Source of the DNA: Shigella phage ESh31 | Sequence record: ON528741 | Reading direction: 5' to 3' (one strand) | Length of the DNA stretch: 64,000 bases | Part shown: positions 3,013 through 42,370 of the stretch, one piece after another | Position numbering within the stretch: position 1 is the first letter of the stretch | Layout: the number at the start of each line of letters is the position of its first letter | Made by a program: the position numbers and the translations under genes | The notes under the pieces: generated by a model | What the model saw: the letters and a program-made list of their open reading frames with translations, nothing else | Told to the model about the DNA's origin: nothing | The model's database searches: none

Positions 3013-3014
3013 TT

Positions 3015-10769: not shown

Positions 10770-12583
10770 CAATTGAAAAAGAAATTGAAGGATTGATTCA
10801 TAAAACTAATAAAGACCTTTTAAACGAGAATGCTAATAAAGATTCTCGTGTTTTTCCAACTCAACGGGACCTTATGGCTGGTATTGTGTCTAAACACATT
10901 GCCAAAAATATGGTCCCGTCTTTTATTATGAAAGCGCATGAAAGCGGAATTATTCATTTCCATGATATTGATTATTCCCCTGCTCTTCCATTTACTAATT
11001 GCTGTTTAGTAGATTTAAAAGGAATGCTTGAGAACGGATTTAAGCTTGGTAATGCACAGATTGAAACTCCTAAATCAATTGGCGTTGCTACTGCAATTAT
11101 GGCACAAATTACTGCACAGGTTGCTTCCCATCAATATGGCGGAACGACTTTTGCTAATGTAGATAAAGTACTTTCTCCTTATGTTAAACGCACCTATGCA
11201 AAACATATTGAGGATGCAGAAAAATGGCAAATCGCTGATGCGTTAAATTATGCTCAATCTAAAACAGAAAAAGATGTATACGATGCATTCCAAGCTTATG
11301 AATATGAAGTAAATACTCTCTTTAGTTCAAACGGACAAACACCTTTTGTAACAATTACATTTGGTACAGGAACTGACTGGACTGAACGAATGATTCAGAA
11401 AGCAATTCTGAAAAATCGTATTAAAGGTCTTGGTCGTGATGGGATAACTCCTATTTTCCCTAAGCTTGTTATGTTTGTTGAAGAAGGTGTTAATCTTTAT
11501 AAAGACGATCCGAACTATGATATTAAACAGCTTGCTCTAGAGTGCGCAAGCAAAAGAATGTATCCTGATATTATTTCAGCTAAGAACAATAAAGCTATCA
11601 CCGGCTCATCTATTCCTGTTTCTCCAATGGGTTGCCGTAGTTTCTTGAGCGTATGGAAAGATTCGACTGGTAATGAAATTCTTGATGGACGTAATAATCT
11701 CGGTGTTGTAACACTGAATCTTCCTCGTATCGCGTTAGATTCTTATATTGGAACACAATTCAATGAACAGAAATTTGTTGAATTGTTCAATGAACGAATG
11801 GATTTATGTTTTGAAGCATTGATGTGTAGAATTAGTTCCTTAAAAGGAGTTAAAGCGACTGTTGCTCCTATTCTTTACCAAGAAGGTGCATTCGGGGTTC
11901 GTCTTAAACCTGATGACGATATAATTGAGTTATTTAAAAATGGTAGAAGTTCAGTGTCTCTAGGATACATTGGTATTCACGAATTGAATATTCTTGTCGG
12001 TCGTGATATTGGACGAGAAATTTTAACTAAAATGAATGCTCGTCTTAAACAATGGACTGAAAGAACTGGGTTTGCTTTTAGTTTGTATTCTACTCCTGCT
12101 GAAAACCTTTGTTATCGCTTCTGTAAACTTGATACAGAAAAATATGGAAGTGTAAAAGATGTTACCGATAAAGGCTGGTACACTAACAGTTTCCACGTTT
12201 CAGTAGAAGAAAATATTACTCCGTTTGAAAAGATTTCTCGTGAAGCGCCATATCATTTCATTGCGACAGGTGGTCACATTTCTTATGTTGAACTTCCTGA
12301 TATGAAAAATAACTTGAAAGGCCTTGAGGCCGTATGGGATTATGCTGCACAACATTTAGATTATTTTGGTGTTAATATGCCAGTAGATAAATGTTTTACA
12401 TGTGGAAGTACCCATGAAATGACTCCTACTGAAAACGGATTTGTTTGTTCTATTTGTGGAGAAACTGATCCTAAAAAGATGAACACAATAAGAAGAACAT
12501 GTGGTTATTTGGGAAATCCGAACGAACGCGGATTTAATCTCGGTAAAAATAAAGAAATCATGCATAGGGTTAAACACCAATGA
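10766..12583 (+). CDS. nrdD: anaerobic ribonucleoside-triphosphate reductase, uninterrupted
   Basis: 605 aa; C-terminal glycyl-radical motif RRTCGYLG; C-terminal Cys cluster; no intron. Confidence 0.9.
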   Translation: MTIEKEIEGLIHKTNKDLLNENANKDSRVFPTQRDLMAGIVSKHIAKNMVPSFIMKAHESGIIHFHDIDYSPALPFTNCCLVDLKGMLENGFKLGNAQIETPKSIGVATAIMAQITAQVASHQYGGTTFANVDKVLSPYVKRTYAKHIEDAEKWQIADALNYAQSKTEKDVYDAFQAYEYEVNTLFSSNGQTPFVTITFGTGTDWTERMIQKAILKNRIKGLGRDGITPIFPKLVMFVEEGVNLYKDDPNYDIKQLALECASKRMYPDIISAKNNKAITGSSIPVSPMGCRSFLSVWKDSTGNEILDGRNNLGVVTLNLPRIALDSYIGTQFNEQKFVELFNERMDLCFEALMCRISSLKGVKATVAPILYQEGAFGVRLKPDDDIIELFKNGRSSVSLGYIGIHELNILVGRDIGREILTKMNARLKQWTERTGFAFSLYSTPAENLCYRFCKLDTEKYGSVKDVTDKGWYTNSFHVSVEENITPFEKISREAPYHFIATGGHISYVELPDMKNNLKGLEAVWDYAAQHLDYFGVNMPVDKCFTCGSTHEMTPTENGFVCSICGETDPKKMNTIRRTCGYLGNPNERGFNLGKNKEIMHRVKHQ

Positions 12584-13050
12584 ATTATGATAGATTTTAT
12601 CCTTGCGATTTTGTGAATGGCCCTGGATGCAGGGTCGTTCTTTTCGTTACAGGTTGTTTGCATAAATGCGAAGGGTGTTATAATAAATCAACATGGAATG
12701 CTAGAAATGGTATTCCATTCACTGGTGAAACACTAGAACAATTGATTGAATGTTTGAATAATGATTATATAGAAGGATTAACTATAACCGGAGGTGACCC
12801 TCTTTATCCTGATAACAGAGACGTGATTCACTCTGTGGTTCAAACTATTAAAAATCTTTATCCCAATAAAAGCATTTGGTTGTGGACAGGATATAAGTTT
12901 GAAGATATTAAACAACTAGAAATGCTTAAATATGTTGATGTTATTATTGATGGGAAGTATGAGAAAAATCTTCCGACTAAAAAGCTGTGGCGAGGATCAG
13001 ATAATCAGCGACTTTGGTCAAATACCGATGGGGTGTGGACACATGATTAA
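12580..13050 (+). CDS. nrdG: anaerobic RNR activating protein (radical SAM)
   Basis: 156 aa; Cys-rich motif GCLHKCEGC; ATGA overlap with nrdD. Confidence 0.85.
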   Translation: MNYDRFYPCDFVNGPGCRVVLFVTGCLHKCEGCYNKSTWNARNGIPFTGETLEQLIECLNNDYIEGLTITGGDPLYPDNRDVIHSVVQTIKNLYPNKSIWLWTGYKFEDIKQLEMLKYVDVIIDGKYEKNLPTKKLWRGSDNQRLWSNTDGVWTHD

Positions 13051-13990: not shown

Positions 13991-14087
13991 GATGGGCCCT
14001 CTGGGCCTTTCTTTCTTACATTCTGTATATTACCATTCTAAGCTATCGTTCCTTTCTTATCATTCCCTGAAATATTTTTCACAAAGT

Positions 14088-14148
14088 TGTTTACAACAAG
14101 TTCAAACCGTGGTATTATTAACATATGAATTACCTTTGAGGAATTGAT
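14088..14148 (+). promoter_or_regulatory. early promoter (GTTTAC / GTGGTATTATTA)
   Basis: GTTTAC -35 and CCGTGGTATTATTA -10 region upstream of the ORF at 14149. Confidence 0.45.
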
Positions 14149-17149: not shown

Positions 17150-17392
17150 AAGATGAACACCCAGACTTCTGAAATAGATTATAATAAAATTCGTTCCTCT
17201 AAAGAGGAAATGATGAGACTCTTTAAAGAGTCTCATGATAAAGCTAAAGCAGAAGGAACTATAAAATATAAGCGCATAAAATTTAAAAGTTCTAATGAGC
17301 CTCTGTATGGCGTATTATGTGGATAGGAGCTTCGGCTCCTATATTGCTTTATAAATTTTTGGTAAAATAAACCAAAACAAAGAGGATATTAA

Positions 17393-18595
17393 ATGAAAGT
17401 ATGTATTTTTATGGCTCGAGGTCTTGAAGGTTGTGGTGTAACAAAATTCTCACTCGAGCAACGTGATTGGTTTATTAAAAATGGTCATGAAGTAACTTTG
17501 GTTTATGCTAAAGATAAATCATTTACTCGTAATTGCGCGCATGATTATAAATCATTTTCAATTCCGGTTTTATTGGCAAAAGAATACGATAAAACACTTA
17601 AGCTGGTAAATGATTGTGATATTCTAATTATCAATTCAGTTCCTGCTACTTCGGTTGAAGAAGACACTATTAATAACTATAAAAAAATTATTGATAACAT
17701 TAAACCTTCTGTTCGTGTTGTAGTTTATCAGCATGACCATTCTTCTCTTTCTTTGCGTCGAAATTTGGGATTAGAAGAAACTGTTCGTCGAGCTGATGTT
17801 ATTTTTAGCCATTCTGATAATGGTGATTTTAATAAAGTTCTGATGAAAGAATGGTATCCTGAAACAGTTTCTCTGTTTGATGATATTGAAGAAGCACCGA
17901 CCGTATATAACTTTCAGCCTCCTATGGATATTGCGAAAGTTCGATCAACCTATTGGAAAGATGTTTCTGAAATTAATATGAATATCAACCGTTGGATTGG
18001 TCGTACGACTACATGGAAAGGTTTTTATCAGATGTTTGATTTTCACGAAAAACATCTTAAACCTGCAGGACTAAGTACTATTATGGAAGGTCTGGAACGT
18101 TCTCCAGCGTTCATTCCTATTAAAGAAAAAGGAATTCCATACGAGTATTATCGTCTTCATCAAGTAGACCAAATTAAAATTGCTCCTAATTTGCCAACGC
18201 AAATTCTTGACCGTTATGTAAATAGCGAAATGCTTGAACGCATGAGTAAATCCGGATTTGGTTATCAACTGAGTAAGTTGGACAAAAAATATTTACAACG
18301 TTCTTTAGAATATACTCATCTCGAGCTTGGTGCATGTGGAACAATTCCGGTATTTTGGAAATCTACTGGCGAAAATTTAAAATTCCGTGTTGATAATACT
18401 CCTTTGACCTCGCATGATAGCGGTATCATTTGGTTTGATGAAAATGATATGGAATCAACATTTGAACGTATTAAAGAACTGTCATCTGACCGAGCTCTTT
18501 ATGACCGTGAGCGAGAAAAAGCATATGAATTTTTGTATCAGCATCAAGATTCAAGCTTCTGCTTTAAAGAACAGTTTGACATTATTACAAAATAA
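17393..18595 (+). CDS. agt: DNA alpha-glucosyltransferase
   Basis: 400 aa; near-identical to T4 alpha-gt as I recall it; AAGAGG RBS; flanked by UUCG hairpins. Confidence 0.9.
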   Translation: MKVCIFMARGLEGCGVTKFSLEQRDWFIKNGHEVTLVYAKDKSFTRNCAHDYKSFSIPVLLAKEYDKTLKLVNDCDILIINSVPATSVEEDTINNYKKIIDNIKPSVRVVVYQHDHSSLSLRRNLGLEETVRRADVIFSHSDNGDFNKVLMKEWYPETVSLFDDIEEAPTVYNFQPPMDIAKVRSTYWKDVSEINMNINRWIGRTTTWKGFYQMFDFHEKHLKPAGLSTIMEGLERSPAFIPIKEKGIPYEYYRLHQVDQIKIAPNLPTQILDRYVNSEMLERMSKSGFGYQLSKLDKKYLQRSLEYTHLELGACGTIPVFWKSTGENLKFRVDNTPLTSHDSGIIWFDENDMESTFERIKELSSDRALYDREREKAYEFLYQHQDSSFCFKEQFDIITK

Positions 18596-18634: not shown

Positions 18635-18775
18635 ATGATATTTCTTGGATATGTGATACTTTTTCTTGCATTTTATCTATTCACTAGAGCGTGCTGGATT
18701 GGGTTCTTTAGCACTCCAGATGGATTTATTTCAATAATTTTATTTTGCATTTCAATGACGGTTCTTGATATATGA
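18635..18775 (+). CDS. hypothetical small membrane protein (46 aa)
   Basis: GGAG RBS; hydrophobic sequence MIFLGYVILFLAFYLF...; stop overlaps the next start. Confidence 0.3.
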   Translation: MIFLGYVILFLAFYLFTRACWIGFFSTPDGFISIILFCISMTVLDI

Positions 18776-19395
18776 AAAAATATATAACTTATTTAACAAT
18801 ATATAGTGGAGATAAACTTCCTCCTTTTTATATTGGATCTACGTCTTTAGATAGGCATTTAGCTGGATATCATGGTTCAGTTTTATCTAAAAAGTATAAG
18901 AAAATTTATAATAAAGAGCTTTCAGATAATCCTCACTTATTTGATTCATGCATTTTAGCTGAATTTGATACACGTGAAGAAGCTATTAAATGCGAGTTAT
19001 ATTATCAACGATTGCATGATGCAGTTAAAAATCCATTATTCTTTAATATGTCATATGCTGCTCCAAAAGGTTCATTTGGAAGAGATAATAAAGGACAAAA
19101 TCATCCATTATATGGTTCTCATAATTGTAAAGGAAATATACATTCACATGATCCATTAACAGGAAAATCTGCCTTTTTGCCTTATATTCCAGAAGGTTAT
19201 GTAAAAGGAAGGTCAAATAAATTTAAAGCTTCATCACATAATAAAGGTAAAAAATGGTATAATAACGGAGTTAAGCAAATGTTATGTCATGAACCTCCTG
19301 GTCCTGAATGGACAAAAGGAAAAATTAAAGAACTAGTTTCAAAAGCAGCTAAATTAGGATGGAAAAGACACCATGAAAATACTAAACTTGGGTGA
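18772..19395 (+). CDS. GIY-YIG family endonuclease-like protein (Seg-like)
   Basis: 207 aa; N-terminal TIYSG-x9-FYIGSTS spacing like GIY-x10-YIG with downstream R..H and conserved-Glu pattern; overlaps the gene 47 start by 23 nt. Confidence 0.45.
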   Translation: MKKYITYLTIYSGDKLPPFYIGSTSLDRHLAGYHGSVLSKKYKKIYNKELSDNPHLFDSCILAEFDTREEAIKCELYYQRLHDAVKNPLFFNMSYAAPKGSFGRDNKGQNHPLYGSHNCKGNIHSHDPLTGKSAFLPYIPEGYVKGRSNKFKASSHNKGKKWYNNGVKQMLCHEPPGPEWTKGKIKELVSKAAKLGWKRHHENTKLG

Positions 19396-26150: not shown

Positions 26151-28847
26151 ATGAAAGAATTTTATATCTCTATCGAAACAGTCGGAAATAATATTGTTGA
26201 ACGTTATATTGATGAAAACGGAAAGGAACGTACTCGTGAAGTAGAATATCTTCCAACTATGTTTAGGCATTGTAAGGAAGAGTCAAAATACAAAGACATC
26301 TATGGTAAAAATTGTGCTCCTCAAAAATTTCCATCAATGAAAGATGCTCGAGATTGGATGAAACGAATGGAAGACATCGGTCTCGAAGCTCTCGGTATGA
26401 ACGATTTTAAACTCGCTTATATCAGTGATACATACGGTTCAGAAATTGTTTATGACCGAAAATTTGTTCGTGTAGCTAACTGTGACATTGAGGTTACTGG
26501 TGATAAATTTCCTGACCCAATGAAAGCTGAATATGAAATTGATGCTATCACTCATTACGATTCAATTGATGATCGTTTTTATGTTTTCGACCTTTTGAAT
26601 TCAATGTACGGTTCAGTATCAAAATGGGATGCAAAGTTAGCTGCTAAGCTTGACTGTGAAGGTGGTGATGAAGTTCCTCAAGAAATTCTTGACCGAGTAA
26701 TTTATATGCCATTCGACAATGAGCGTGATATGCTCATGGAATATATTAATCTTTGGGAACAGAAACGACCTGCTATTTTTACTGGTTGGAATATTGAGGG
26801 ATTTGACGTTCCGTATATCATGAATCGCGTTAAAATGGTTCTCGGTGAACGTAGTATGAAACGCTTCTCTCCAATCGGTCGAGTAAAATCTAAACTTATC
26901 CAAAATATGTACGGTAGCAAAGAAATTTATTCTATTGATGGCGTATCTATTCTTGATTATTTAGATTTGTATAAGAAATTCGCATTTACTAATTTGCCGT
27001 CATTTTCTTTGGAATCAGTTGCTCAGCATGAAACCAAAAAAGGTAAATTACCATACGACGGTCCTATTAATAAACTTCGTGAGACTAATCATCAACGATA
27101 CATTAGTTATAACATCATTGACGTAGAATCAGTTCAAGCAATTGATAAAATTCGCGGGTTTATCGATCTAGTTTTAAGTATGTCTTATTACGCTAAAATG
27201 CCTTTTTCTGGTGTAATGAGTCCTATTAAAACCTGGGATGCTATTATTTTTAACTCATTGAAAGGTGAACATAAGGTTATTCCTCAACAAGGTTCGCATG
27301 TTAAACAGAGTTTTCCGGGTGCATTTGTGTTTGAACCTAAACCAATTGCTCGTCGATATATTATGAGTTTTGACTTGACGTCTCTGTATCCGAGCATTAT
27401 TCGTCAGGTTAACATTAGTCCTGAGACTATTCGTGGTCAGTTTAAAGTTCATCCAATTCATGAATATATCGCAGGAACAGCTCCTAAACCGAGTGATGAA
27501 TATTCTTGTTCTCCGAATGGATGGATGTACGATAAGCATCAAGAAGGTATCATTCCAAAGGAAATCGCTAAAGTATTTTTCCAGCGTAAAGATTGGAAAA
27601 AGAAAATGTTCGCTGAAGAAATGAATGCCGAAGCTATTAAAAAGATTATTATGAAAGGCGCAGGGTCTTGTTCAACTAAACCTGAAGTTGAACGATATGT
27701 TAAGTTCAGTGATGATTTCTTAAATGAACTATCGAATTATACTGAATCTGTTCTCAATAGTTTGATTGAAGAATGTGAAAAAGCGGCTACACTTGCTAAT
27801 ACAAATCAGCTGAACCGTAAAATTCTTATTAACAGCCTTTACGGCGCTCTTGGTAATATTCATTTCCGCTACTATGATTTGCGAAATGCTACTGCTATTA
27901 CAATTTTTGGTCAAGTCGGTATTCAGTGGATTGCTCGTAAAATTAATGAGTATCTGAATAAAGTATGTGGAACTAATGGCGAAGATTTCATCGCAGCAGG
28001 TGATACTGATTCGGTATATGTTTGTGTAGATAAAGTTATTGAAAAAGTTGGTCTTGACCGATTCAAAGAGCAGAACGATTTAGTTGAATTCATGAATCAG
28101 TTCGGTAAGAAAAAGATGGAACCTATGATTGATGTTGCATATCGTGAGTTATGTGATTATATGAATAACCGCGAGCATCTGATGCATATGGACCGTGAAG
28201 CTATTTCTTGCCCTCCGCTTGGTTCAAAGGGTGTCGGTGGATTTTGGAAAGCGAAAAAACGTTATGCTCTGAACGTTTATGATATGGAAGATAAGCGATT
28301 TGCCGAACCGCATCTAAAAATTATGGGTATGGAAACTCAACAGAGTTCAACACCAAAAGCAGTACAAGAAGCTCTCGAAGAAAGTATTCGTCGTATTCTT
28401 CAGGAAGGTGAAGAGTCTGTCCAAGAATATTACAAGAACTTCGAGAAAGAATATCGTCAACTTGACTATAAAGTTATTGCTGAAGTAAAAACTGCGAACG
28501 ATATAGCGAAATATGATGATAAAGGTTGGCCAGGATTTAAATGTCCGTTCCATATTCGTGGTGTGCTAACTTATCGTCGAGCTGTTAGCGGTTTAGGTGT
28601 AGCTCCAATTTTGGATGGAAATAAAGTAATGGTTCTTCCATTGCGTGAAGGAAATCCATTTGGTGACAAATGCATTGCTTGGCCGTCGGGTACAGAACTT
28701 CCAAAAGAAATTCGTTCTGACGTACTGTCTTGGATTGACTACTCAACTTTGTTCCAAAAATCGTTTGTTAAACCGCTTGCAGGCATGTGTGAATCGGCTG
28801 GTATGGACTATGAAGAAAAAGCTTCGTTAGACTTCCTGTTTGGCTGA
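26151..28847 (+). CDS. 43: DNA polymerase gp43 (family B)
   Basis: 898 aa; exonuclease and polymerase motifs (YGDTDS); C-terminal clamp-binding tail SLDFLFG. Confidence 0.95.
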   Translation: MKEFYISIETVGNNIVERYIDENGKERTREVEYLPTMFRHCKEESKYKDIYGKNCAPQKFPSMKDARDWMKRMEDIGLEALGMNDFKLAYISDTYGSEIVYDRKFVRVANCDIEVTGDKFPDPMKAEYEIDAITHYDSIDDRFYVFDLLNSMYGSVSKWDAKLAAKLDCEGGDEVPQEILDRVIYMPFDNERDMLMEYINLWEQKRPAIFTGWNIEGFDVPYIMNRVKMVLGERSMKRFSPIGRVKSKLIQNMYGSKEIYSIDGVSILDYLDLYKKFAFTNLPSFSLESVAQHETKKGKLPYDGPINKLRETNHQRYISYNIIDVESVQAIDKIRGFIDLVLSMSYYAKMPFSGVMSPIKTWDAIIFNSLKGEHKVIPQQGSHVKQSFPGAFVFEPKPIARRYIMSFDLTSLYPSIIRQVNISPETIRGQFKVHPIHEYIAGTAPKPSDEYSCSPNGWMYDKHQEGIIPKEIAKVFFQRKDWKKKMFAEEMNAEAIKKIIMKGAGSCSTKPEVERYVKFSDDFLNELSNYTESVLNSLIEECEKAATLANTNQLNRKILINSLYGALGNIHFRYYDLRNATAITIFGQVGIQWIARKINEYLNKVCGTNGEDFIAAGDTDSVYVCVDKVIEKVGLDRFKEQNDLVEFMNQFGKKKMEPMIDVAYRELCDYMNNREHLMHMDREAISCPPLGSKGVGGFWKAKKRYALNVYDMEDKRFAEPHLKIMGMETQQSSTPKAVQEALEESIRRILQEGEESVQEYYKNFEKEYRQLDYKVIAEVKTANDIAKYDDKGWPGFKCPFHIRGVLTYRRAVSGLGVAPILDGNKVMVLPLREGNPFGDKCIAWPSGTELPKEIRSDVLSWIDYSTLFQKSFVKPLAGMCESAGMDYEEKASLDFLFG

Positions 28848-28860
28848 TAGAATAAATCTA

Positions 28861-28882
28861 GGGACCTCCGGGTCCCTTTTTC
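28861..28882 (+). terminator. UUCG-type tetraloop terminator
   Basis: GGGACC-TCCG-GGTCCC followed by TTTTTC. Confidence 0.55.
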
Positions 28883-28963
28883 ATACAAGTAATATAAATC
28901 TATACTTATGAAAAACAGATGATTCTGGACCTTTAGAATTCCCTAAAAAATTTTCACAAAACT

Positions 28964-29027
28964 GTTTACAAGACTGTTCTTCCATGGTACTATACAACTA
29001 TCAACTAATACGGATTTGGAGAATAAA
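28964..29027 (+). promoter_or_regulatory. early promoter/leader cassette (PeSL-like)
   Basis: GTTTACAAGACTGTTCTTCCATGGTACTATACAACTATCAACTA...GGAGAATAAAATG; near-identical copies at 56210 and 59852. Confidence 0.5.
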
Positions 29028-29264
29028 ATGAAAATTGTTATGGGATGCTTAGCAGTTTGTTTAGTTGCATTAGCAGCAGTTCCATTTGTTAGTGTTGAAA
29101 ATGATACTCAACCTGTGATTGAATCTAGCACCGTTATTCACACTAATGGTAAAATATCAGTTAAAATTGATGATAATCTTCATGTGAATACAAATGGATC
29201 TTTAGGTGTGCAAATGGGTAATACCTGCATAAGCACTACTGGAGTAATTACTACTTGCATTTGA
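29028..29264 (+). CDS. small secreted protein (signal peptide)
   Basis: 78 aa from the internal Met; N-terminal hydrophobic signal MKIVMGCLAVCLVALAAVPF. Confidence 0.45.
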   Translation: MKIVMGCLAVCLVALAAVPFVSVENDTQPVIESSTVIHTNGKISVKIDDNLHVNTNGSLGVQMGNTCISTTGVITTCI

Positions 29265-29274
29265 GGAAATTATT

Positions 29275-29655
29275 ATGAAAATCGCTATTTTGGTTATTGC
29301 ATTAGGTCTTACTGGTTGTGTAGCTCAAGGACCGGTAGTAAATCAGTCTGATGTAGGAAAAATTGTAAACTGTTCAAGCAAATTTTATAATCCTAATGTC
29401 AAGTGTTATAAAGAAGCTCCAAAGCAAACAGTCGAACAAATGCAGGCGAATTTTGACGAAGCTATTCGTCCAGATGAATCTGCTCAAGCATATCGTAATT
29501 CTGATGTAATTACACGCGAAGAAAAAATTGAAAACTACTGCGCCGAGCTTTGGGCTAATTGGGCTAATAATTACCAATGGCGTACTGGTAAAAATGCTCC
29601 GATGGAGTATGTAGTGAATTCTTATAATTCATGCGTAAAAAATTTGACTAAGTGA
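29275..29655 (+). CDS. predicted lipoprotein
   Basis: 126 aa; signal peptide with lipobox LTGC (MKIAILVIALGLTGCVAQ); GAGG RBS. Confidence 0.5.
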   Translation: MKIAILVIALGLTGCVAQGPVVNQSDVGKIVNCSSKFYNPNVKCYKEAPKQTVEQMQANFDEAIRPDESAQAYRNSDVITREEKIENYCAELWANWANNYQWRTGKNAPMEYVVNSYNSCVKNLTK

Positions 29656-29662
29656 GGAAAAC

Positions 29663-29914
29663 ATGGAAACTTTAGTAGCAGGTTCAATTTTTATGGTTTT
29701 AGTTTCAGGTGTGTTGGCTATTATTATATACATGCTTCCATGGTTTATCGCCTTGATGCGTGGGTCAAAATCGACAGTAGGAATCTTTTTCACATCTTTA
29801 CTGTTTAACTGGTCAATTATTGGTTGGTTTATTACATTTATTTGGTCAATTGCGGGTGAAACTAAAAAGTCTGCACAGCCAAATCAGGTAATTATCATCA
29901 GAGAGAAGGAATGA
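29663..29914 (+). CDS. imm: superinfection immunity membrane protein Imm
   Basis: 83 aa; two transmembrane helices; length and position upstream of gene 42 match T4 imm. Confidence 0.6.
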   Translation: METLVAGSIFMVLVSGVLAIIIYMLPWFIALMRGSKSTVGIFFTSLLFNWSIIGWFITFIWSIAGETKKSAQPNQVIIIREKE

Positions 29915-30060
29915 AAAGCAAAATTATAGCAGTGTTGCTTTTAATCTTGATGATTATAATAAGTATATACTATAGTGTAACGGTTCCTCTTATGATTCCA
30001 ACTATTATTTTAGGTTGGAGCTTATTACTGTTACAAGTTAAATATGAATGTATCAATTGA
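29911..30060 (+). CDS. hypothetical small membrane protein (49 aa)
   Basis: ATGA overlap with imm; strongly hydrophobic; below the track cutoff. Confidence 0.35.
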   Translation: MKSKIIAVLLLILMIIISIYYSVTVPLMIPTIILGWSLLLLQVKYECIN

Positions 30061-30067
30061 GGTTTAA

Positions 30068-30808
30068 ATGATTAGTGACTCTATGACAGTTGAAGAAATC
30101 CGTCTTCATTTGGGGCTTGCATTAAAAGAAAAAGATTTCGTAGTTGATAAAACTGGCGTTAAAACTATTGAAATTATTGGCGCATCATTTGTAGCAGATG
30201 AACCCTTTATTTTTGGCGCTCTTAATGATGAATACATTCAGCGTGAACTTGAATGGTACAAGTCTCAAAGTCTGTTTGTTAAAGATATTCCAGGTGAAAC
30301 ACCAAAGATTTGGCAGCAGGTAGCATCTTCTAAAGGCGAAATTAACTCGAATTATGGTTGGGCTATTTGGTCAGAAGATAACTATGCCCAGTATGATATG
30401 TGTTTAGCTGAACTTGGTCAAAATCCTGATTCTCGACGTGGTATCATGATTTATACTCGTCCATCTATGCAGTTTGACTATAATAAAGATGGTATGTCAG
30501 ATTTCATGTGCACGAATACAGTACAGTACCTGATTCGTGACAAGAAAGTCAATGCAGTAGTAAGCATGCGCTCAAATGACGTGGTCTTCGGATTCCGTAA
30601 TGATTATGCATGGCAAAAATACGTATTAGATAAATTAGTATCTGATTTGAATGCAGGCGATTCAACTCGTCAGTATAAAGCAGGTTCTATTATATGGAAT
30701 GTTGGAAGTCTTCATGTATATTCTCGTCATTTTTACTTGGTTGATCATTGGTGGAATACTGGCGAAACTCATATTGTGAAAAAAGACTATAAAGGTGAGT
30801 GGAAATGA
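30068..30808 (+). CDS. 42: dCMP hydroxymethylase
   Basis: 246 aa; thymidylate-synthase-like fold; matches T4 gp42. Confidence 0.9.
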   Translation: MISDSMTVEEIRLHLGLALKEKDFVVDKTGVKTIEIIGASFVADEPFIFGALNDEYIQRELEWYKSQSLFVKDIPGETPKIWQQVASSKGEINSNYGWAIWSEDNYAQYDMCLAELGQNPDSRRGIMIYTRPSMQFDYNKDGMSDFMCTNTVQYLIRDKKVNAVVSMRSNDVVFGFRNDYAWQKYVLDKLVSDLNAGDSTRQYKAGSIIWNVGSLHVYSRHFYLVDHWWNTGETHIVKKDYKGEWK

Positions 30809-31647
30809 TTCAATTCGTAATTCCAAGTTATCAACGTGTCGGGGCAGTTTCTGCCCTTGATATGTTTCCGACTGATTATGAACCGCATATTGTAGTGCGT
30901 GAACACGAAGAAAAAGCTTATTATGATGCTTATGGGTCTAGAGCTAAAATTATAACTATTCCTGATGATGTAAACGGAATTGCCGGTACTCGTAAAGCAA
31001 TTACTGATATGTATGCAGGTCAACGAATTTGGATGATTGACGATGATACTACTATTCGTATGAGTTCAATGCGAAAAAGAGATGACCGTCGTTGTGTGGA
31101 TAAAGTCAATCAATTGACTCATGAACAGTTCTATGAATTGATTCAATATGTTGAGGATGCCATGGATTGCGGGTATTATCATGGCCATGCTCGTCTACCT
31201 ATTTTTAAAATTACTTCATCTTGGGGTAATTATCGTGAAAATTCATACGGATTCACGAATACATGGTATGACCTCGGAAAACTTACGACAGAACAAATTG
31301 GGTATGGAAAAATTGATTTATGCGAAGATATGTATGCATTTCTCAATTTAATTAATCAAGGCTATCCGCATTTGGCCTTGTTCAAATATCTGGTTGTATC
31401 TGGAAAAGCACAAGCTCCTGGCGGGTGCAGTTCAATTCGTAGTAATTCTAAACATAATAGAGCGCTTGAGCAAATCAATAGAGAGTTTCCAGAGCAAGCT
31501 CGTTGGAAAACTTCTAATATTGAAAAACGAAAATCGTTGGGTGAAGAAGATGAACCACTAAAGGTTCTTCGCATGTGTGTTTCACGTAAAGAAAAATCAG
31601 AAGCATTTCATAAGTTTAATGCTATTCATCCAATAGCAGTTGATTAA
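30799..31647 (+). CDS. GT-A type glycosyltransferase at the beta-gt locus (candidate beta-glucosyl-HMC alpha-glucosyltransferase)
   Basis: 282 aa; DxD-type motif WMIDDDTT; occupies the position of T4 beta-gt but is shorter and unrelated in sequence. Confidence 0.5.
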   Translation: MEMIQFVIPSYQRVGAVSALDMFPTDYEPHIVVREHEEKAYYDAYGSRAKIITIPDDVNGIAGTRKAITDMYAGQRIWMIDDDTTIRMSSMRKRDDRRCVDKVNQLTHEQFYELIQYVEDAMDCGYYHGHARLPIFKITSSWGNYRENSYGFTNTWYDLGKLTTEQIGYGKIDLCEDMYAFLNLINQGYPHLALFKYLVVSGKAQAPGGCSSIRSNSKHNRALEQINREFPEQARWKTSNIEKRKSLGEEDEPLKVLRMCVSRKEKSEAFHKFNAIHPIAVD

Positions 31648-33249: not shown

Positions 33250-34677
33250 GTGGTAGAAATTATTCTTTCTCATCTCATATTTGATCAAGCTTATTTTTCA
33301 AAAGTTTGGCCATATATGGATTCAGAATATTTTGAAAGTGGTCCAGCTAAAAATACATTCAAATTAATTAAATCTCATGTTAATGAGTATCATAGCGTTC
33401 CATCTATTAATGCGTTAAATGTTGCATTAGAAAATAGTTCATTTACTGAAACAGAATATTCTGGTGTAAAAACACTTATTTCAAAACTGGCTGATTCTCC
33501 AGAAGACCACAGCTGGTTAGTAAAAGAAACAGAAAAATATGTTCAGCAAAGGGCGATGTTTAATGCTACATCTAAAATAATCGAAATTCAAACTAATGCT
33601 GAGCTTCCTCCGGAAAAACGAAATAAGAAAATGCCGGATGTTGGTGCTATTCCTGACATCATGCGGCAAGCATTATCTATTTCATTTGATAGTTACGTTG
33701 GTCATGATTGGATGGATGACTACGAAGCACGTTGGCTATCTTATATGAATAAAGCTCGTAAGGTTCCATTTAAACTCAAAATTCTAAATAAAATTACTAA
33801 AGGCGGAGCTGAAACTGGAACACTGAACGTTTTAATGGCTGGTGTTAACGTCGGTAAGTCATTAGGATTGTGTTCATTGGCAGCAGATTATTTGCAGCTC
33901 GGACATAATGTTCTTTACATTTCCATGGAAATGGCAGAAGAAGTTTGTGCTAAGCGTATTGACGCTAATATGCTTGATGTTTCTCTTGACGATATTGATG
34001 ATGGGCATATTTCTTACGCTGAGTATAAAGGAAAGATGGAAAAATGGCGTGAGAAATCTACCCTTGGTCGTTTAATCGTTAAGCAATATCCTACTGGTGG
34101 AGCAGACGCTAATACATTTCGATCACTTTTAAATGAATTAAAGCTCAAGAAGAATTTTGTTCCAACAGTCATTATTGTCGACTATCTAGGTATTTGTAAA
34201 TCTTGCCGCATTAGAGTTTATTCAGAAAATAGTTACACAACTGTTAAAGCTATCGCAGAGGAATTGCGTGCTCTGGCTGTTGAAACCGAAACTGTTCTTT
34301 GGACTGCAGCACAGGTTGGTAAACAAGCTTGGGACTCTTCCGATGTTAACATGAGCGATATTGCAGAATCTGCTGGTCTTCCAGCAACAGCTGATTTTAT
34401 GCTTGCGGTCATTGAAACCGAGGAGCTAGCAGCTGCTGAACAACAACTCATTAAGCAAATCAAATCACGATATGGCGATAAGAACAAATGGAATAAGTTT
34501 TTGATGGGTGTTCAAAAAGGAAATCAGAAATGGGTAGAAATTGAACAAGATTCTACTCCAACTGAAGTGAGTGAGGTAGCAGGTTCACAACAGATACAAG
34601 CTGAGCAGAATCGCTATCAAAGAAATGAATCCACTCGAGCTCAGTTAGATGCTTTGGCAAATGAATTAAAATTTTAG
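33250..34677 (+). CDS. 41: replicative DNA helicase gp41 (DnaB-like)
   Basis: 475 aa; GTG start after AAGGAG; Walker A GVNVGKS. Confidence 0.9.
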   Translation: MVEIILSHLIFDQAYFSKVWPYMDSEYFESGPAKNTFKLIKSHVNEYHSVPSINALNVALENSSFTETEYSGVKTLISKLADSPEDHSWLVKETEKYVQQRAMFNATSKIIEIQTNAELPPEKRNKKMPDVGAIPDIMRQALSISFDSYVGHDWMDDYEARWLSYMNKARKVPFKLKILNKITKGGAETGTLNVLMAGVNVGKSLGLCSLAADYLQLGHNVLYISMEMAEEVCAKRIDANMLDVSLDDIDDGHISYAEYKGKMEKWREKSTLGRLIVKQYPTGGADANTFRSLLNELKLKKNFVPTVIIVDYLGICKSCRIRVYSENSYTTVKAIAEELRALAVETETVLWTAAQVGKQAWDSSDVNMSDIAESAGLPATADFMLAVIETEELAAAEQQLIKQIKSRYGDKNKWNKFLMGVQKGNQKWVEIEQDSTPTEVSEVAGSQQIQAEQNRYQRNESTRAQLDALANELKF

Positions 34678-34735
34678 TTTACAAGCTGACAAGACTATGG
34701 TATAGTAGTCTTGTTGGTTAAATGAGGAGATTGTT

Positions 34736-34919: not shown

Positions 34920-35177
34920 ATGCATATTGTTTTATTTAAACCTACTCCGTATAACGTCAGGAAAAATACGCAATTCAAAGCACTTATTGCAGATACGTGG
35001 GAATTGGTGCTAGATATTCCAGCAGAAGAAAGTCCTCCATTTGGTCGAGTGGAATTTATTAAGTTTGTTGTACGTCCTACGAAGAGGCAGATTCGTCAGT
35101 GTAAAAGGCATTTTCGTAAGATCGTTAAGCTAGAGAAACAGTTTGTAACATGTGATTATGCAGAAGTTTTAAAATAG
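34920..35177 (+). CDS. hypothetical protein (85 aa)
   Basis: Internal Met overlapping the dmd stop. Confidence 0.4.
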   Translation: MHIVLFKPTPYNVRKNTQFKALIADTWELVLDIPAEESPPFGRVEFIKFVVRPTKRQIRQCKRHFRKIVKLEKQFVTCDYAEVLK

Positions 35178-35237
35178 CTGTTTACTTTTGTTGGAAATTG
35201 AGATACTATATAAACATAAACTACTGAGGAGATTATC

Positions 35238-35532: not shown

Positions 35533-36171
35533 ATGATTTATTATATGCACAAAAATCCACCGTTTAAATACGGTAAATTTCCTGATGCACAATGTTATAA
35601 TATAACGCCTGATGAAAATAACCGTGGATATCTTATTGGCACAATTTTTGTAATTGTTAAAGATAACGAAATCGTTGCCTGGGCAGATTTTAAAGGTACA
35701 ACACATGATGTTAATCCGGTGCCTTTCACATATTACAATATAATGGATTTGGCATATGATTATAATTGGTTTAATCATGACACGTTGGCTCATATTCATA
35801 TTGAAGGTGTAGGATTTGACATCTCTTATTCTAGCTACTCATTGTGTCCTATGAGTCGGGCTCATAAAGAACCTGAATATTTTTCATTTAGGAAACGTGT
35901 AAACTTTAAACGCAACACAGAGTATGTCGGTGGAATCTTTGTTAAAGATAATCGAATTATTCGTATTAATTATCCTTTGAGCGTTAGTCAAAAAGATATT
36001 GATGTTGATTTAGATTTCACTGAAAATAATATTAATCATATTGCTTCTGTGTATTTTGGTATCGATCACAAAATTGTAATATGTGGATATGAATTACCGT
36101 TTGAAGAACAGCCTAAAGTAAAAGTTTCTATTGACGATCAAATTTTTAATGCTTTTATGAATAAAGGTTAA
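35533..36171 (+). CDS. hypothetical protein (212 aa) with conserved C-terminal tail
   Basis: Ends in SIDDQIFNAFMNKG, shared with the next ORF. Confidence 0.45.
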   Translation: MIYYMHKNPPFKYGKFPDAQCYNITPDENNRGYLIGTIFVIVKDNEIVAWADFKGTTHDVNPVPFTYYNIMDLAYDYNWFNHDTLAHIHIEGVGFDISYSSYSLCPMSRAHKEPEYFSFRKRVNFKRNTEYVGGIFVKDNRIIRINYPLSVSQKDIDVDLDFTENNINHIASVYFGIDHKIVICGYELPFEEQPKVKVSIDDQIFNAFMNKG

Positions 36172-36172
36172 T

Positions 36173-36529
36173 ATGTATAGTTCTGAATTTTCATATTTAA
36201 AAATGGAAAAAATTTCATACGATTTTATAGATGAAAAGGTTTATTACAGTTTCCATGAACCACGTTTTAATAGTGAGGTTGGGTTTATTGTAGTAAAAGA
36301 CAATTTCATTTTAAAGATATATTCGGCATTAAAGGATTTTCACTACGAAAATATTAACCTAAAATTTAATAAAGAAAACGTTCGTAATTGCGCAGTAACA
36401 ATTACAGGAAATAAAGGTACATGTGTTATGCTATCCGATGAAATTAATGATTTGCTAAATGATGCAGAAAAAGTTGCTATTCCATCGATTGATGACCAAA
36501 TTTTTAATGCTTTTATGAATAGAGGTTAA
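36173..36529 (+). CDS. hypothetical protein (118 aa) with conserved C-terminal tail
   Basis: Ends in SIDDQIFNAFMNRG; the last ~45 nt are a near copy of the end of the preceding ORF. Confidence 0.45.
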   Translation: MYSSEFSYLKMEKISYDFIDEKVYYSFHEPRFNSEVGFIVVKDNFILKIYSALKDFHYENINLKFNKENVRNCAVTITGNKGTCVMLSDEINDLLNDAEKVAIPSIDDQIFNAFMNRG

Positions 36530-36530
36530 T

Positions 36531-36695
36531 ATGAAAACATATAAAGAATTTATTAAAGAAGATATGGTAGCTGGAGATTCAGGTGGTAATCCTGAAAATA
36601 TCTCTACTGGAACAACATCAGGTGCTGTAGTAAATAAAGGTCCTGAGCAGATTCCTAAAAAGAAAAAAGAGGAATCTAAAGAAAAAGAAGAGTAA
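36531..36695 (+). CDS. hypothetical small low-complexity protein (54 aa)
   Basis: Gly/Thr/Ser-rich then Lys/Glu-rich; below the track cutoff. Confidence 0.3.
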   Translation: MKTYKEFIKEDMVAGDSGGNPENISTGTTSGAVVNKGPEQIPKKKKEESKEKEE

Positions 36696-37923: not shown

Positions 37924-37994
37924 ATATCCTCCTTATTGCTTTATATATTTATTGTATAATTAATCTACTAACCCATGAATTGAAAGGAAAAATA

Positions 37995-38513
37995 ATGGCT
38001 TACTTTAACGAATGTTCACAACTGATTGAAGGCGCTGATAAAGCTCAAAATGAATATTGGGATATTCTCGGTGATGAAAAAGACCCGCTGCAGGTAATGC
38101 TTGACATGCAGAAATCTCTGCAGATTCGTTTAGCTAAAGATAAACCTGAATATAATCGTCATCCTGATGACTTGGCTACTGCCGGTGAAGTTGTTGATTG
38201 GTTGCGTAATCAGAAAGATTATATTGACGATGAATTCCGTGAACTTCTGACTTCTCTTGGTGGTATGAGTAATGGTGAAAAAGACGCATCTGCTGTATGG
38301 AAACCTTGGAAGTCGCAGCATGGTGAACGTCGTGAAACTCTGATTACTGATTTGTCTCCACAAGACCAGTTAGAAATTAAATTTGAAATGATTGATATTC
38401 TTCATTTCGTTCTGAATATGTTCCAGGGTCTTGGTCTTACAGCAGAAGAAATCTTTAAACTTTATTATCTGAAAAATGCCGAGAACTTTGCTCGTCAGGA
38501 CCGAGGTTATTAA
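37995..38513 (+). CDS. 56: dCTPase-dUTPase gp56
   Basis: 172 aa from the internal Met (MAYFNECSQLIEGADKAQNEYWDILGDEKDPLQ...). Confidence 0.85.
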   Translation: MAYFNECSQLIEGADKAQNEYWDILGDEKDPLQVMLDMQKSLQIRLAKDKPEYNRHPDDLATAGEVVDWLRNQKDYIDDEFRELLTSLGGMSNGEKDASAVWKPWKSQHGERRETLITDLSPQDQLEIKFEMIDILHFVLNMFQGLGLTAEEIFKLYYLKNAENFARQDRGY

Positions 38514-38543
38514 CAGCTCGTCTTAAAAGCCGCGAGAATTTAT

Positions 38544-38551
38544 TATAAATA
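38544..38551 (+). promoter_or_regulatory. late promoter TATAAATA upstream of soc
   Basis: Exact TATAAATA about 30 nt upstream of the soc ATG. Confidence 0.5.
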
Positions 38552-38827: not shown

Positions 38828-38832
38828 ATTCA

Positions 38833-38857
38833 AGGACTCCTTCGGGAGTCCTTTTTC
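38833..38857 (+). terminator. UUCG tetraloop terminator
   Basis: AAGGACTCC-TTCG-GGAGTCCTT followed by TTTTC. Confidence 0.6.
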
Positions 38858-38922
38858 ATTTAAATGGTTTACATATCAAAATGAGTATGGTATAATAGAA
38901 TTATCTTATAGAGGAGAGCACT

Positions 38923-40774: not shown

Positions 40775-40957
40775 ATGGATTTATTTGAGATGTTAGAAGA
40801 TAATCATTCTACGAATAACCAGAATGATTCTAGTGATTATAAGAAAGAGTACCGTATAGTATTACAGAATTATGGAATTGAAGCCCCAGATGCTCTTCTA
40901 GAAGAACTAGCTTCATACCATCTTGACCCTCCGCCTTGGGCTCCCTGGGCAAAATAA
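40775..40957 (+). CDS. hypothetical acidic protein (60 aa)
   Basis: ORF upstream of modB. Confidence 0.3.
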   Translation: MDLFEMLEDNHSTNNQNDSSDYKKEYRIVLQNYGIEAPDALLEELASYHLDPPPWAPWAK

Positions 40958-41024
40958 TTCAAAAAGTTGTTTACTTTCCTTTCTAACGATGATATGATAG
41001 CTTCTGAAGTATACGGAGGCTATC

Positions 41025-42247: not shown

Positions 42248-42370
42248 TGGAAGGACTTAGATTCATTATACCATGAAATTTTTAAAGCATTTTTACATAA
42301 AGTTGTTTACAAGTTAAAGTAAAAATGTTATAGTATAAGTAGTTAACCGTCCGTAAGATGTGAGAAAAAT

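Follow-up and report, generated by a model that had tools for sequence, protein, structure and literature searches.

Early-promoter cassettes of Shigella phage ESh31 are probably paralogous immediate-early promoter/leader units of the T4 type

The repeated elements of about 70–100 bp found in front of unrelated genes in Shigella phage ESh31 (sequence record ON528741) are very probably the immediate-early promoter/leader units of a T4-like phage, that is, paralogous cassettes of which every member serves another early gene. The window, i.e. the whole analysed stretch of 64,000 nucleotides, corresponds to the early region of a Tequatrovirus (T4/T2/T6-like) and is colinear with T4, its + strand being the T4 minus strand. 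An earlier note made from the letters of this DNA had listed eight such elements and had interpreted them as promoter-early stem-loop (PeSL) cassettes, mobile regulatory modules which mark recombination-prone insertion sites.

Census of the cassettes

Scanning the window with a profile built from the copies revealed 18 early-promoter cassettes, all located on the + strand; the - strand gave no significant match to this profile. All eight sites listed earlier proved to be real, correctly placed and members of this set. The G of the -35 element GTTTAC is found at 3015, 14089, 28964, 46170, 56210, 56726 and 59852, and the copy formerly given as '48250' carries ATATAC at 48256 as its -35 element. 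Ten further cassettes were identified at 1314, 1583, 5992, 34677, 35180, 38867, 40969, 42305, 51951 and 62475.

The cassettes lie upstream of nrdC.8 (2990–3072), nrdC.4 (5967–6049), 55.6 (14064–14148), dmd (34652–34735), sp (spackle; 35155–35237), mrh.2 (38842–38922), modB (40944–41024), srd (42280–42370), motB.2 (46145–46226), an 89-aa ORF preceding cef (48231–48328), rIIA.1 (51926–52005), ndd.4 (56701–56783), motA (59827–59922) and asiA (62450–62535). Another is located downstream of denB (56185–56276), and the cassette at 28939–29027, on which the earlier note was centred, was assigned by sequence comparison as the orthologue of the T4 promoter upstream of imm.1. The remaining two, after nrdC.11 (1289–1381) and at 1583–1639, belong to a promoter-bounded module. 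The first proteins encoded after the cassettes showed no significant mutual similarity, as had been claimed for the downstream genes. No Rfam match was obtained over the whole window.

As the genome contains about 65% A+T, matches resembling sigma-70 promoters are common (3 versus 2.5 expected in a 700-nt region that was scanned), and one could regard the copies as chance matches. This explanation has a negligible probability, because motif counts far exceeded those of shuffled sequences: with up to two mismatches, GTGGTACTATAC was found 12 times (2.45 expected) and CAACTATCAACTAC five times (0.45 expected). Moreover, all 18 profile matches share one strand and immediately precede gene starts, and their orthologues are kept in five genomes.

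Promoter architecture and similarity between copies

The 18 cassettes share a consensus stretch reaching from about -45 to +15. It reads aAaaAttTTTcA.AAA.tt GTTTAC ... tgTGG TActAT and thus combines an A/T-rich UP element with an extended -10 element (TGn). A GTTTAC -35 element, a TAnnnT -10 element and a spacing of 17 bp characterise 17 of the 18 copies, the exceptions noted being ATATAC at 48256 and GTATAC at 1583; with its degenerate -35 element, the copy at 48256 may be a weak or inactive promoter. Similarity extends past the hexamers and comprises the A/T UP element, GTTTAC, TGG-TAYTAT and a start-site block, A.aa.TATCAACTA. In agreement with the earlier expectation of similarity beyond the -35 and -10 hexamers, the 20 nt following the -10 element contain 9.8 bits, which equals the -35 element. 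Additional consensus regions are known for T4 early promoters (PMC2988021). Judged from spacing alone, the first A of CTATCAA would represent position +1; this start block also occurs in RB69, which belongs to another genus.

From their sequence, the cassettes are predicted to carry active T4-type early promoters with a Shine-Dalgarno sequence (SD) and an ATG at their 3′ end. The UP element, GTTTAC, the 17-bp spacing, TGn and TAYTAT would be read by the host sigma-70 RNA polymerase; the start block CTATCAA, an unstructured leader, the SD and an ATG, often with AAA after it, would then follow.

The identity over more than 40 nt that had been attributed to several copies was not found: the longest exact run amounts to 31 nt (56230–56260 = 59872–59902) and connects the cassette downstream of denB with the motA leader. 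Relaxed matching extended the longest match between copies to 37 nt with two mismatches or 45 nt with four mismatches. Exact runs of 20–31 nt are arranged between copies as a mosaic. The spacers between the -35 and -10 elements fall into classes with 73–93% identity within a class; class A includes the nrdC.8 and ndd.4 cassettes, which are 87% identical over 67 nt, and class B (CCACAAGGATGTGG) those of nrdC.4 and rIIA.1. A common leader of the ACAACTATCAACTAC type, as proposed earlier, is present in six of the eight copies listed there (in the nrdC.8 cassette, ACAACTATCAACTAC is followed by GGAGGAACACAAAATG), whereas the copies at 14089 and 46170 have mainly the promoter elements in common with the others, leader similarity being weak in the former, which precedes 55.6.

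Such similarity could in principle originate from pure convergence on an extended functional consensus with neither common ancestry nor exchange. A function is known or plausible for each of the UP, -35, TGn and -10 elements, CTATCAA and the site GGAGAAUAAAA, and RB69 retains the start block despite otherwise different promoters. However, the spacers, whose sequence is not recognised as such by the polymerase, are conserved within their classes to the degree given above, as is the nrdC.8/ndd.4 pair over its 67 nt, and where orthologues differ in clusters of several bases, these differences agree with the states of paralogues. Convergence as the only cause is therefore improbable. We attribute the similarity at the level of the consensus to functional constraint, and the shared spacers together with the mosaic of exact runs to common ancestry of the cassettes with occasional homologous recombination or gene conversion.

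Leaders and putative RegB/S1 sites

The leaders have a length of 19–37 nt and no predicted structure. Folding of the leader RNAs yielded 0 to -4.7 kcal/mol with a mean z of +0.6. A structured leader or riboswitch was accordingly dismissed, since the leaders are both short and unstructured.

Much of the leader identity can be explained by functional signals which are stacked on each other, chiefly the RegB/S1 site GGAGAAUAAAA. The published consensus, GGAGAAUAAAA / GGAGRAYARAA, is located in single-stranded RNA; among T4 substrates of RegB, motA is a good and nrdC.8 a moderate one, and a GGAU site of motB.2 is also cut (PMC1702504). Exact copies of the optimal site GGAGAAUAAAA were identified at 1630, 29018, 48319 and 56267, and sites with one mismatch at 46217 (motB.2, with GGATAATAAAA as SD) and 59911 (motA, with GGAGATTAGAA as SD). 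The sequence GGAGAATAAAATG, which represents the published optimal RegB/S1 cleavage site, is found exactly in four cassette copies (none expected), where it abuts the start codon that follows the leader; it forms the end of the cassettes at 48231–48328 and 56185–56276 and, in front of nrdC.10, of that at 1583–1639. As in the T4 early mRNAs studied by Durand et al. 2006 (PMC1702504), GGAG is combined with an A-rich 7-mer. The SDs of many cassettes are thus candidate RegB/S1 targets, here predicted from sequence, and would in these copies serve a second purpose, namely the inactivation of the mRNA by RegB cleavage minutes later. A RegB site explains only the 3′ end of the cassette.

The cassette upstream of the imm.1 position

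The cassette at 28939–29027 possesses an UP element, GTTTAC (28964–28969) and TGG-TACTAT with the -10 element at 28988–28993. Its leader is ACAACTATCAACTAATACGGATTT, followed by GGAGAATAAAA (29018–29028), which adjoins the ATG at 29028. No hairpin was detected in or next to this promoter, for which folding gave -1.6 kcal/mol and a z of +0.7. The sole stem-loop in its vicinity is the intrinsic terminator after gene 43 on the + strand (28860–28885; AGGGACCTCCGGGTCCCT and then a T run), located 87 nt upstream of the -35 element. The first ORF behind this cassette (29028–29264, + strand; phrog_4189) encodes a variable 78-aa protein with a signal-peptide-like N-terminus; T4, T6 and PST lack this ORF, and 318 phage records contain it. 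The repeat ATGAAAAT flanks this ORF, and the junction of variability is found in this repeat at the start codon, outside the promoter.

Positional stability and exchange between cassettes

Cassettes occupy identical loci in T4, T6, PST and JY01 and are 96–98% identical among these genomes, the same value as observed for the flanking coding sequences. The T4 promoters at the same loci (reference AF158101) show the same spacer and leader classes and nearly identical sequences, promoter orthology being deduced from sequence, not from annotation. The cassettes are therefore stable paralogues and not moving elements. The designation as mobile regulatory modules is doubtful for them, and active mobility was discarded as an explanation, because orthologues keep their loci and diverge as fast as their flanks.

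Patchy swaps of spacer and leader sequence were nevertheless found among paralogous cassettes. The leader of ndd.6 in JY01, the spacer of ndd.4 in T6 and the core of ndd.4 in L016 each equal the state of a paralogue. An exact-match scan with a 23-nt core in the IMG/VR viral contigs yielded only 14 loci on few T4-like contigs, which serve as examples and not for statistics. Three different first ORFs follow one and the same leader at the ndd.6 locus. In ESh31 this leader is followed by a variable 87-aa ORF (56277–56540, + strand; phrog_2390), which is absent from T4 and whose place after the leader is taken by another ORF in PST; the junction again lies at the start codon (AAATGAAA), outside the promoter. 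An 89-aa ORF (48329–48598) separates another promoter from cef, and T4, PST and T6 have an internal deletion here (difference 48336–48537). The interpretation of this difference from T4 as an in-frame cef variant was ruled out, as it concerns a separate ORF with an internal deletion.

A case of relocation is the promoter-bounded module at 1314–1620 (+ strand), which consists of a promoter core, a 66-aa ORF (1382–1582; phrog_6200) and a second early promoter. The first cassette (1289–1381, -35 at 1314) follows a terminator at 1265–1284, and its core and leader are unlike those of the T4 orthologue; the second (1583–1639) has an RB69-type promoter, GTATAC-N18-TATAGT AGTCCTATCAA. The module is absent from T4, T6, PST and JY01 and occurs with 96% identity at another locus of the Mosigvirus TU01. 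Homology to TU01 extends from GTTTAC to ...AGTCCTAT, and hence ends within promoter elements. The earlier proposal of PeSL-like recombination stands in so far as this module recurs elsewhere in another genus; it is doubtful for most of the copies listed, which have no stem-loop in or next to the promoter.

Cassettes as sites of recombination

Since the copies are similar to each other and situated at gene starts, cassettes sometimes act as crossover points at which small ORFs are gained, lost or replaced. This leads to the question whether they are PeSL-type mobile modules, with recombination between cassettes as the main driver of gain and loss of accessory genes and cassette positions as hot spots. 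Such a model exists in the literature on RB49/phi1 and PST/T4, an exchange at the ndd locus being part of it. The module at 1314–1620, which moved with its two promoters between loci and genera, and the three alternative first ORFs after one leader at ndd.6 speak in its favour, as does the fact that cassette DNA makes up about 3% of the window and contains about 10% of the breakpoints. At the level of genes, variable first ORFs were found after 4 of 18 cassettes compared to 15 of 103 other genes (odds ratio 1.7, p = 0.30), and variable genes after cassettes gave odds ratios of 1.7–2.7 (p = 0.15–0.30) for four genomes with crude gene calls. The gene caller missed a 207-aa GIY-YIG-like ORF (18772–19395), by which the number of variable genes without promoter is slightly inflated; the conclusion remains the same. 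Variable genes may thus be modestly enriched after cassettes, which would be compatible with the four-genome data. A preference for ORFs that differ between relatives, as expected for PeSLs, was seen for the copy at 28964 and three others, with no overall enrichment over other gene starts in the four-genome comparison.

Against hot spots, breakpoints were located at 4 of 17 cassette gene starts versus 26–36 of 106 other gene starts (odds ratio 0.6–0.95 for the four comparison genomes, p = 0.64–0.87), the gene-level comparison (p = 0.30) gave no enrichment either, and the claim that cassettes are recombination-prone sites of variable gene content was thus not borne out. Homing endonucleases or an intron are involved in about 8 of about 30 indels, and whole-ORF indels elsewhere are found at promoter-less junctions with the same ATGAAA/TTATG microhomologies or with a 49-nt coding repeat. 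Furthermore, the junctions of the imm.1-type cassette and of ndd.6 coincide with the start codon and not with the promoter, cassette positions are conserved, and 10 of the 18 copies have no stem-loop. We consider it doubtful, although possible, that PeSL-type shuffling dominates here. On the preferred reading as paralogous promoter/leader units, crossovers at cassettes in the window are no commoner than at ordinary gene starts, and the cassettes stay at fixed, orthologous positions.

Hairpin-bearing promoters

A hairpin over the -10 element was detected in 4 of the 18 copies (1314, 1583, 34677 and 48256) and a terminator within 160 nt upstream in 5 of 18, examples being the terminators at 38832–38853, directly upstream of the mrh.2 cassette, and at 59800–59821 upstream of motA; 10 of 18 have neither. 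The four hairpins occupy 1318–1352, 1588–1627, 34684–34720 and 48258–48308, respectively. The dmd cassette contains a 15-bp hairpin (-18.6 kcal/mol, z = -6.7). The 11-bp inverted repeat formerly described around the -10 element of the copy at 48256 is real and even stronger than stated, with 13 bp exact and 20-nt arms of 85% complementarity centred on the -10 element.

Promoters with a -10 hairpin also exist beyond the window at loci in T4 and RB69 as well as in T4-like contigs from metagenomes. The arms of this class covary between loci, and arm positions which deviate from Watson-Crick pairing are almost all G-U on the sense strand and not A-C; for this count of G-T versus A-C, the class had been selected on Watson-Crick pairs only. 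One can tentatively speculate that these copies form a promoter subclass in which the -10 element resides in the loop or 3′ arm of an RNA-level hairpin acting on read-through transcripts from upstream. If so, the hairpin would act, e.g., by attenuation, 3′-end protection or processing, and hairpin promoters would also insulate early transcription units from each other; promoters of the 'linear' class, to which the copy at 28964 belongs, would let read-through pass.

Relation to known systems and significance

Compared to the T4 early promoters (Pe; 'uber' UP/-35/TGn/-10), the ESh31 cassettes have the same elements at the same loci with near-identical sequences, and nothing essential differs; ESh31 possesses an extra promoter pair (1314 and 1583) whose core is of the Mosigvirus type, as well as a few small indels in leaders. 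PeSLs were described for RB49/phi1 (Arbiol 2010, PMC2839356) as well as for PST/T4 and nt-1/KVP40 (Comeau 2014, PMC4122927), and the composite promoter/terminator PeSL elements of PST/T4 include the ndd locus, which is present in the window (PMC4122927). The window cassettes resemble PeSLs in their AT-rich region, early promoter, SD with ATG and flanking small ORFs, and the four hairpin copies display the stem-loop over the -10 element that is the commonest RB49 arrangement. The module at 1314–1620 is consistent, by genome comparison, with a prediction of the PeSL model. They differ in that ten copies, among them the one at 28964, are devoid of a stem-loop in or next to the promoter and in that breakpoints were not found to be enriched here.

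The morons of lambdoid phages are likewise small accessory ORFs equipped with a promoter and in some cases a terminator of their own; their insertion is not known to require conserved regulatory sequences on the flanks, whereas the module boundaries observed here lie inside conserved promoter motifs. Elements of about 70 bp which contain an early promoter and an overlapping inverted repeat reportedly flank the exchangeable internal-protein (IP) genes of T-even phages on both sides, as Repoila and colleagues are said to have described in 1994. PeSL-like elements built on T4 early promoters are associated with variable IP loci; these loci are located outside the window, and most copies found here have no inverted repeat.

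The promoter family, the RegB site and PeSL shuffling are already known, and no new principle is added; the published shuffling concerns a close relative and one of the loci found here. The value for annotation is that the cassettes mark the limits of the phage's immediate-early transcription units, and that ribosome-binding sites of the GGAGAAUAAAA type mark early mRNAs which are probably switched off by RegB. For phage engineering, the cassettes represent natural, transcriptionally self-sufficient insertion points. Stacked regulatory signals lead to identities of 20–30 nt in front of unrelated genes, which is enough for occasional homologous exchange.

Early promoter-leader cassettes on one strand of the window

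The interval flagged for one copy of the cassette, a T4-type early promoter with a leader ending in a Shine-Dalgarno sequence (SD) and start codon, is 28964-29027; its first base is the G of GTTTAC and its last the one preceding an ATG. All eight sites named in the earlier note (3015, 14088, 28964, 46170, 48250, 56210, 56726 and 59852) were recovered by a regular-expression scan and a direct-repeat search; the common motifs were observed 12 and 5 times versus 2.45 and 0.45 expected. Scanning the window with a profile HMM built from the copies revealed 18 sites with E < 0.01, all on the + strand and ten of them absent from the earlier list, while the - strand of the window gave no significant match to this profile. 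With T4 as reference, the promoters are located in front of an extra ORF and of nrdC.10, nrdC.8, nrdC.4, 55.6, imm.1 (the flagged copy, again with an extra ORF), dmd, sp, mrh.2, modB, srd, motB.2, cef (extra ORF), rIIA.1, ndd.6 (extra ORF), ndd.4, motA and asiA. As had been claimed, the downstream genes are unrelated, the first proteins after the cassettes being without significant mutual similarity.

The earlier observation was thus confirmed, with two overstatements. No two copies are identical over more than 40 nt, exact identity extending to 31 nt at most and matches reaching 37 nt if two mismatches are allowed and 45 nt if four are; and the leader said to be common to the listed copies is not shared by those at 14089 and 46170, which have the promoter elements but little of the leader. 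The inverted repeat of the copy at 48256 (upstream of an 89-aa ORF before cef) is real and larger than described, with 13 bp exact, or 20-nt arms of 85% complementarity, and its centre on the -10.

Relationship of the window to T4

The window is a genome segment of a Tequatrovirus (T4/T2/T6-like). Phages such as JK1, wV7 and AR1 match positions 27000-31000 at 98-99% identity, and JY01 matches 40000-64000 at about 96%. By blastn, the window is colinear with the T4 minus strand (T4 coordinates 56449 through 1 and 168903 to 160197), and its + strand therefore corresponds to the T4 early/middle transcription direction. The gene order runs from nrdC.11 through 43, imm, 42, 41, dda, 39, rIIA, rIIB, denB, ndd, 52, motA and asiA to t and gp38.

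Missing in comparison with T4 are the nrdD intron with I-TevII, mobC, mobB, dam, segF and mobA/60.1, the sites concerned being 11301-11304, 12580-12600, 17377-17402, 37934-37955, 38476-38544 and 51551-51616. Genes 39 and 60 form a single uninterrupted topoisomerase gene (50134-51951). The motB.1/motB region is replaced relative to T4, T6 and PST (46752-48221) and holds two MotB-like paralogues (47319-47792 and 47802-48221) which have stretches of 48-93 nt with 71-77% identity in common. In the gp38 adhesin gene on the - strand (63630-63995), a 183-nt tandem duplication is present in two copies of 99% identity; this 61-aa unit lies in the glycine-rich region of the T2/T6-type tail-fibre adhesin and its duplication may bear on host range.

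Promoter anatomy and the putative RegB site

A gap-free alignment of the 17 clear copies on the -35 and -10 gave the consensus aAaaAttTTTcA.AAA.tt GTTTAC At..c......a.tgTGG TActAT A.aa.TATcAAcTA. The similarity clearly extends beyond the two hexamers because the upstream block (15.6 bits), the spacer (8.8 bits, mostly TGG) and the 20 nt after the -10 (9.8 bits) carry information in addition to the -35 (9.8 bits) and the -10 (6.9 bits). T4 early promoters are described as "uber" UP/-35/TGn/-10 promoters with additional consensus regions (Hinton review, PMC2988021). Every sequence-level feature defining this class is present, and the cassettes would by kind be T4 early promoters. In nine cassettes the UP element is coding sequence, since the stop codon of the upstream gene lies just 0-16 nt before the -35.

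From the usual distance of 7 nt, we infer that transcription starts at the first A of CTATCAA, which gives 5' UTRs of 19-37 nt. RNA folding of the leaders from +1 to ATG+15 yielded minimum free energies of 0 to -4.7 kcal/mol, on average less structured than shuffled sequences (mean z +0.6). The CTATCAA start block also follows the -10 in RB69 (Mosigvirus), and its retention there despite otherwise different promoters (TATAGT AGTCCTATCAAA) argues for functional constraint on this block.

The exact 13-mer GGAGAATAAAATG ends four leaders (at 1630, 29018, 48319 and 56267; 0 expected), and those of motA and motB.2 contain GGAGATTAGAA and GGATAATAAAA, respectively. The target of the endoribonuclease RegB with S1 is an 11-nt single-stranded site with the consensus GGAGRAYARAA and the T4 optimum GGAGAAUAAAA; among T4 substrates motA is good and nrdC.8 moderate, and the GGAU of motB.2 is cut (Durand et al., PMC1702504). 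As it matches this target, the 3' part of the shared leader would be, by its sequence, the known post-transcriptional shut-off site doubling as Shine-Dalgarno sequence.

Stem-loops at a minority of cassettes

Terminator-like hairpins are located within 160 nt upstream of five of the 18 promoters, at distances of 14-34 nt at nrdC.10, mrh.2 and motA and of 81-87 nt at 55.6 and the flagged copy, where the gene 43 terminator occupies 28860-28877. Hairpins spanning the -10 occur at the copy upstream of cef (48258-48308; -20.2 kcal/mol, z -5.3), at dmd (34684-34720; -18.6 kcal/mol, z -6.7), at 1588-1627 (-15.4 kcal/mol) and at 1318-1352 (-14.1 kcal/mol); none was found at the flagged copy (-1.6 kcal/mol, z +0.7) or motA. 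Ten of the 18 cassettes have neither type. Separately, a GC-rich hairpin with a UUCG-type loop (GGGCTTCGGCCC and variants) is repeated in intergenic positions at 14955, 18589, 23900, 26075, 50059, 55345 and 55577, probably as terminators or RNA-stability hairpins.

For the hairpin subclass, promoter-like sequences were collected from the window, T4, T6, PST, JY01, RB69 and a few IMG/VR contigs. Counted in one fixed register, Watson-Crick pairs between the spacer and the -10/start region had a bimodal distribution, with one mode at 3-4 of 11 and a second at 9-11. The subclass also occurs at two T4 loci (L001, L002), two RB69 loci (L026, L027) and IMG/VR loci. Among 14 hairpin-class sequences, changes on both sides were present at 8 of 12 pairs, and the covariation score was 0.58 versus 0.32 in shuffles and collapsed once the partner columns were slid. 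With selection on Watson-Crick pairs only, the non-Watson-Crick cells comprised 24 G-T and 3 A-C; this preference points to sense-strand pairing in read-through RNA from upstream, and suggests an RNA-level role. These figures come from sequences chosen for pairing, several of them orthologues. The stem-loop of promoter-early stem-loop (PeSL) elements in RB49/phi1 lies mostly between -35 and -10 or over the -10, and terminator activity was demonstrated for one of them (Arbiol et al., PMC2839356). Given this placement, the -10 hairpin subclass is a known architecture too.

Inheritance in place and mosaicism among paralogues

The promoters and their loci are the same in T4, down to the spacer and leader variants. 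Orthologues of the cassettes in T4, T6, PST and JY01 share 96.3-98.1% identity with those of the window, resembling the flanking, largely coding 300-nt stretches (96.3-97.4%), and the cassettes are therefore inherited in place, grouping by locus rather than by genome.

Spacer class A (AAGACyGTTCyTCy; 73-93% identity) is found at nrdC.8, imm.1 and ndd.4, and class B (CCACAAGGATGTGG) at nrdC.4, rIIA.1 and partly ndd.6. Since the polymerase does not read spacers sequence-specifically, these classes indicate common descent. The leader ACAACTATCAACTAC is common to nrdC.8, imm.1, ndd.6 and motA, the tail ATACGGATTTGGAGAATAAAATGAAA to imm.1 and ndd.6, and the tail CGGAGGAACAsAAAATGAA to nrdC.8 and ndd.4. 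Some differences between orthologues match the states of paralogues: the ndd.6 locus of JY01 carries an SD of nrdC.8/ndd.4 type before the same ORF, ndd.4 of T6 a spacer of nrdC.8 type, and ndd.4 of one metagenomic contig a -10 and start block of nrdC.8 type; PST and T6 have a different 5' spacer in common at imm.1. Such a pattern would be expected of occasional gene conversion between cassettes.

Variable ORFs and recombination joints

In four indel or replacement events, the start lies no more than a few tens of bases downstream of a promoter. At 1354-1630, the T4 promoter core and leader are replaced by another core, an ORF of 66 aa and a second, RB69-type promoter, with breaks just after GTTTACA and just before GGAGAATAAAATG. 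The 307-nt promoter-bounded module at this site (1314-1620) is present in 132 phage records; in slur14 its locus is unchanged and further small ORFs precede it, and in Mosigvirus TU01 a copy of 96% identity has unrelated neighbours and lies some 2 kb upstream of the genes for nudix hydrolase and lysozyme, the homology starting at GTTTAC and stopping at ...AGTCCTAT. By these comparisons, the module is a clean case of an ORF cassette that, with promoters as its boundaries, has been exchanged across loci and genera, which fits the proposal of the PeSL model.

The event at the flagged copy (29041-29275) concerns a 78-aa ORF that T4, T6 and PST lack and that occurs in 318 records; the 8-nt repeat ATGAAAAT lies on both sides of it. 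The event at 56282-56508 concerns an 87-aa ORF, flanked by an (A)AATGAAA-type repeat and absent from T4; downstream of one and the same promoter and leader lies ndd.6 (T4), this 87-aa ORF (window, T6 and JY01) or ORF269 (PST), a locus depicted in Fig. 6A of Comeau et al. (PMC4122927). The fourth event (48336-48537) is an internal deletion of the 89-aa ORF in T4, T6 and PST. None of the four variable ORFs matched a Pfam family, and their PHROG families are of unknown function. Both imm.1 (29275) and the ndd.6 homologue (56514) start with ATGAAAATCGCT (MKIA); in T4 each directly follows one of two nearly identical leaders, from which an extra ORF separates it in the window, a parallel arrangement at two loci.

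The proposed role of the cassettes as sites of variable genes held for the flagged copy, which adjoins a variable ORF, but did not amount to an overall enrichment. Chained blastn against T4, JY01, PST and T6 gave about 30 distinct indel or replacement events, about eight of which involve homing endonuclease genes or an intron. With only these four genomes compared, phylogenetically non-independent events and crude gene calls, breakpoints were not enriched at promoter-bearing gene starts (4/17 versus 26-36/106 others; odds ratio 0.6-0.95, p 0.64-0.87). Of the genes directly following a cassette, 4/18 were variable versus 15/103 other genes (odds ratio 1.7, p 0.30), and among genes of up to 130 aa 4/11 versus 11/63 (p 0.15).

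Other whole-ORF indels have promoter-less junctions with the same kind of start-codon microhomology (ATGAAAA, TTATG), and one relies on a 49-nt repeat made up of C-terminal coding sequence, SD and ATG. Thus, the rule in the window would be ORF-sized indels joined at start-codon contexts, with cassettes as one good substrate among several and not a privileged one. In the region 36127-36533, 49-nt direct repeats of 92% identity, each a coding-sequence end with SD and ATG, flank a 118-aa ORF (36173-36529) absent from T4, T6 and PST; in this ORF duplication or indel the mediator is a coding repeat and not a promoter. A 207-aa ORF (18772-19395), whose N-terminus (...FYIGSTS...) is GIY-YIG-like, is inserted between gene 47 and the 47.1 homologue; T4, T6, PST and JY01 lack it, and it occurs in 68 phage records, some of which annotate it as homing or HNH endonuclease.

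Relation to PeSL elements

Elements of ~70 bp in which an inverted repeat overlaps a T4 early promoter were reportedly described by Repoila et al. in 1994 on both sides of internal-protein genes. PeSL-like elements built on T4 early promoters are associated with IP loci (Arbiol et al., PMC2839356). The match to PeSL elements suggested by the earlier note is partly supported: promoter, AT-richness and SD/ATG features agree, but a stem-loop is present in a minority of cassettes and only loosely in the flagged copy, and recombination is supported comparatively for one module (1314-1620). The promoter family, the RegB site and the recombination joints are already known, as all have been described for T4 and close relatives. 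The cassettes are best explained as a stable paralogous family of immediate-early promoter-leader units, in which stacked functional signals, shared ancestry and occasional gene conversion would account for the similarity and which sometimes, though not preferentially, act as recombination joints.
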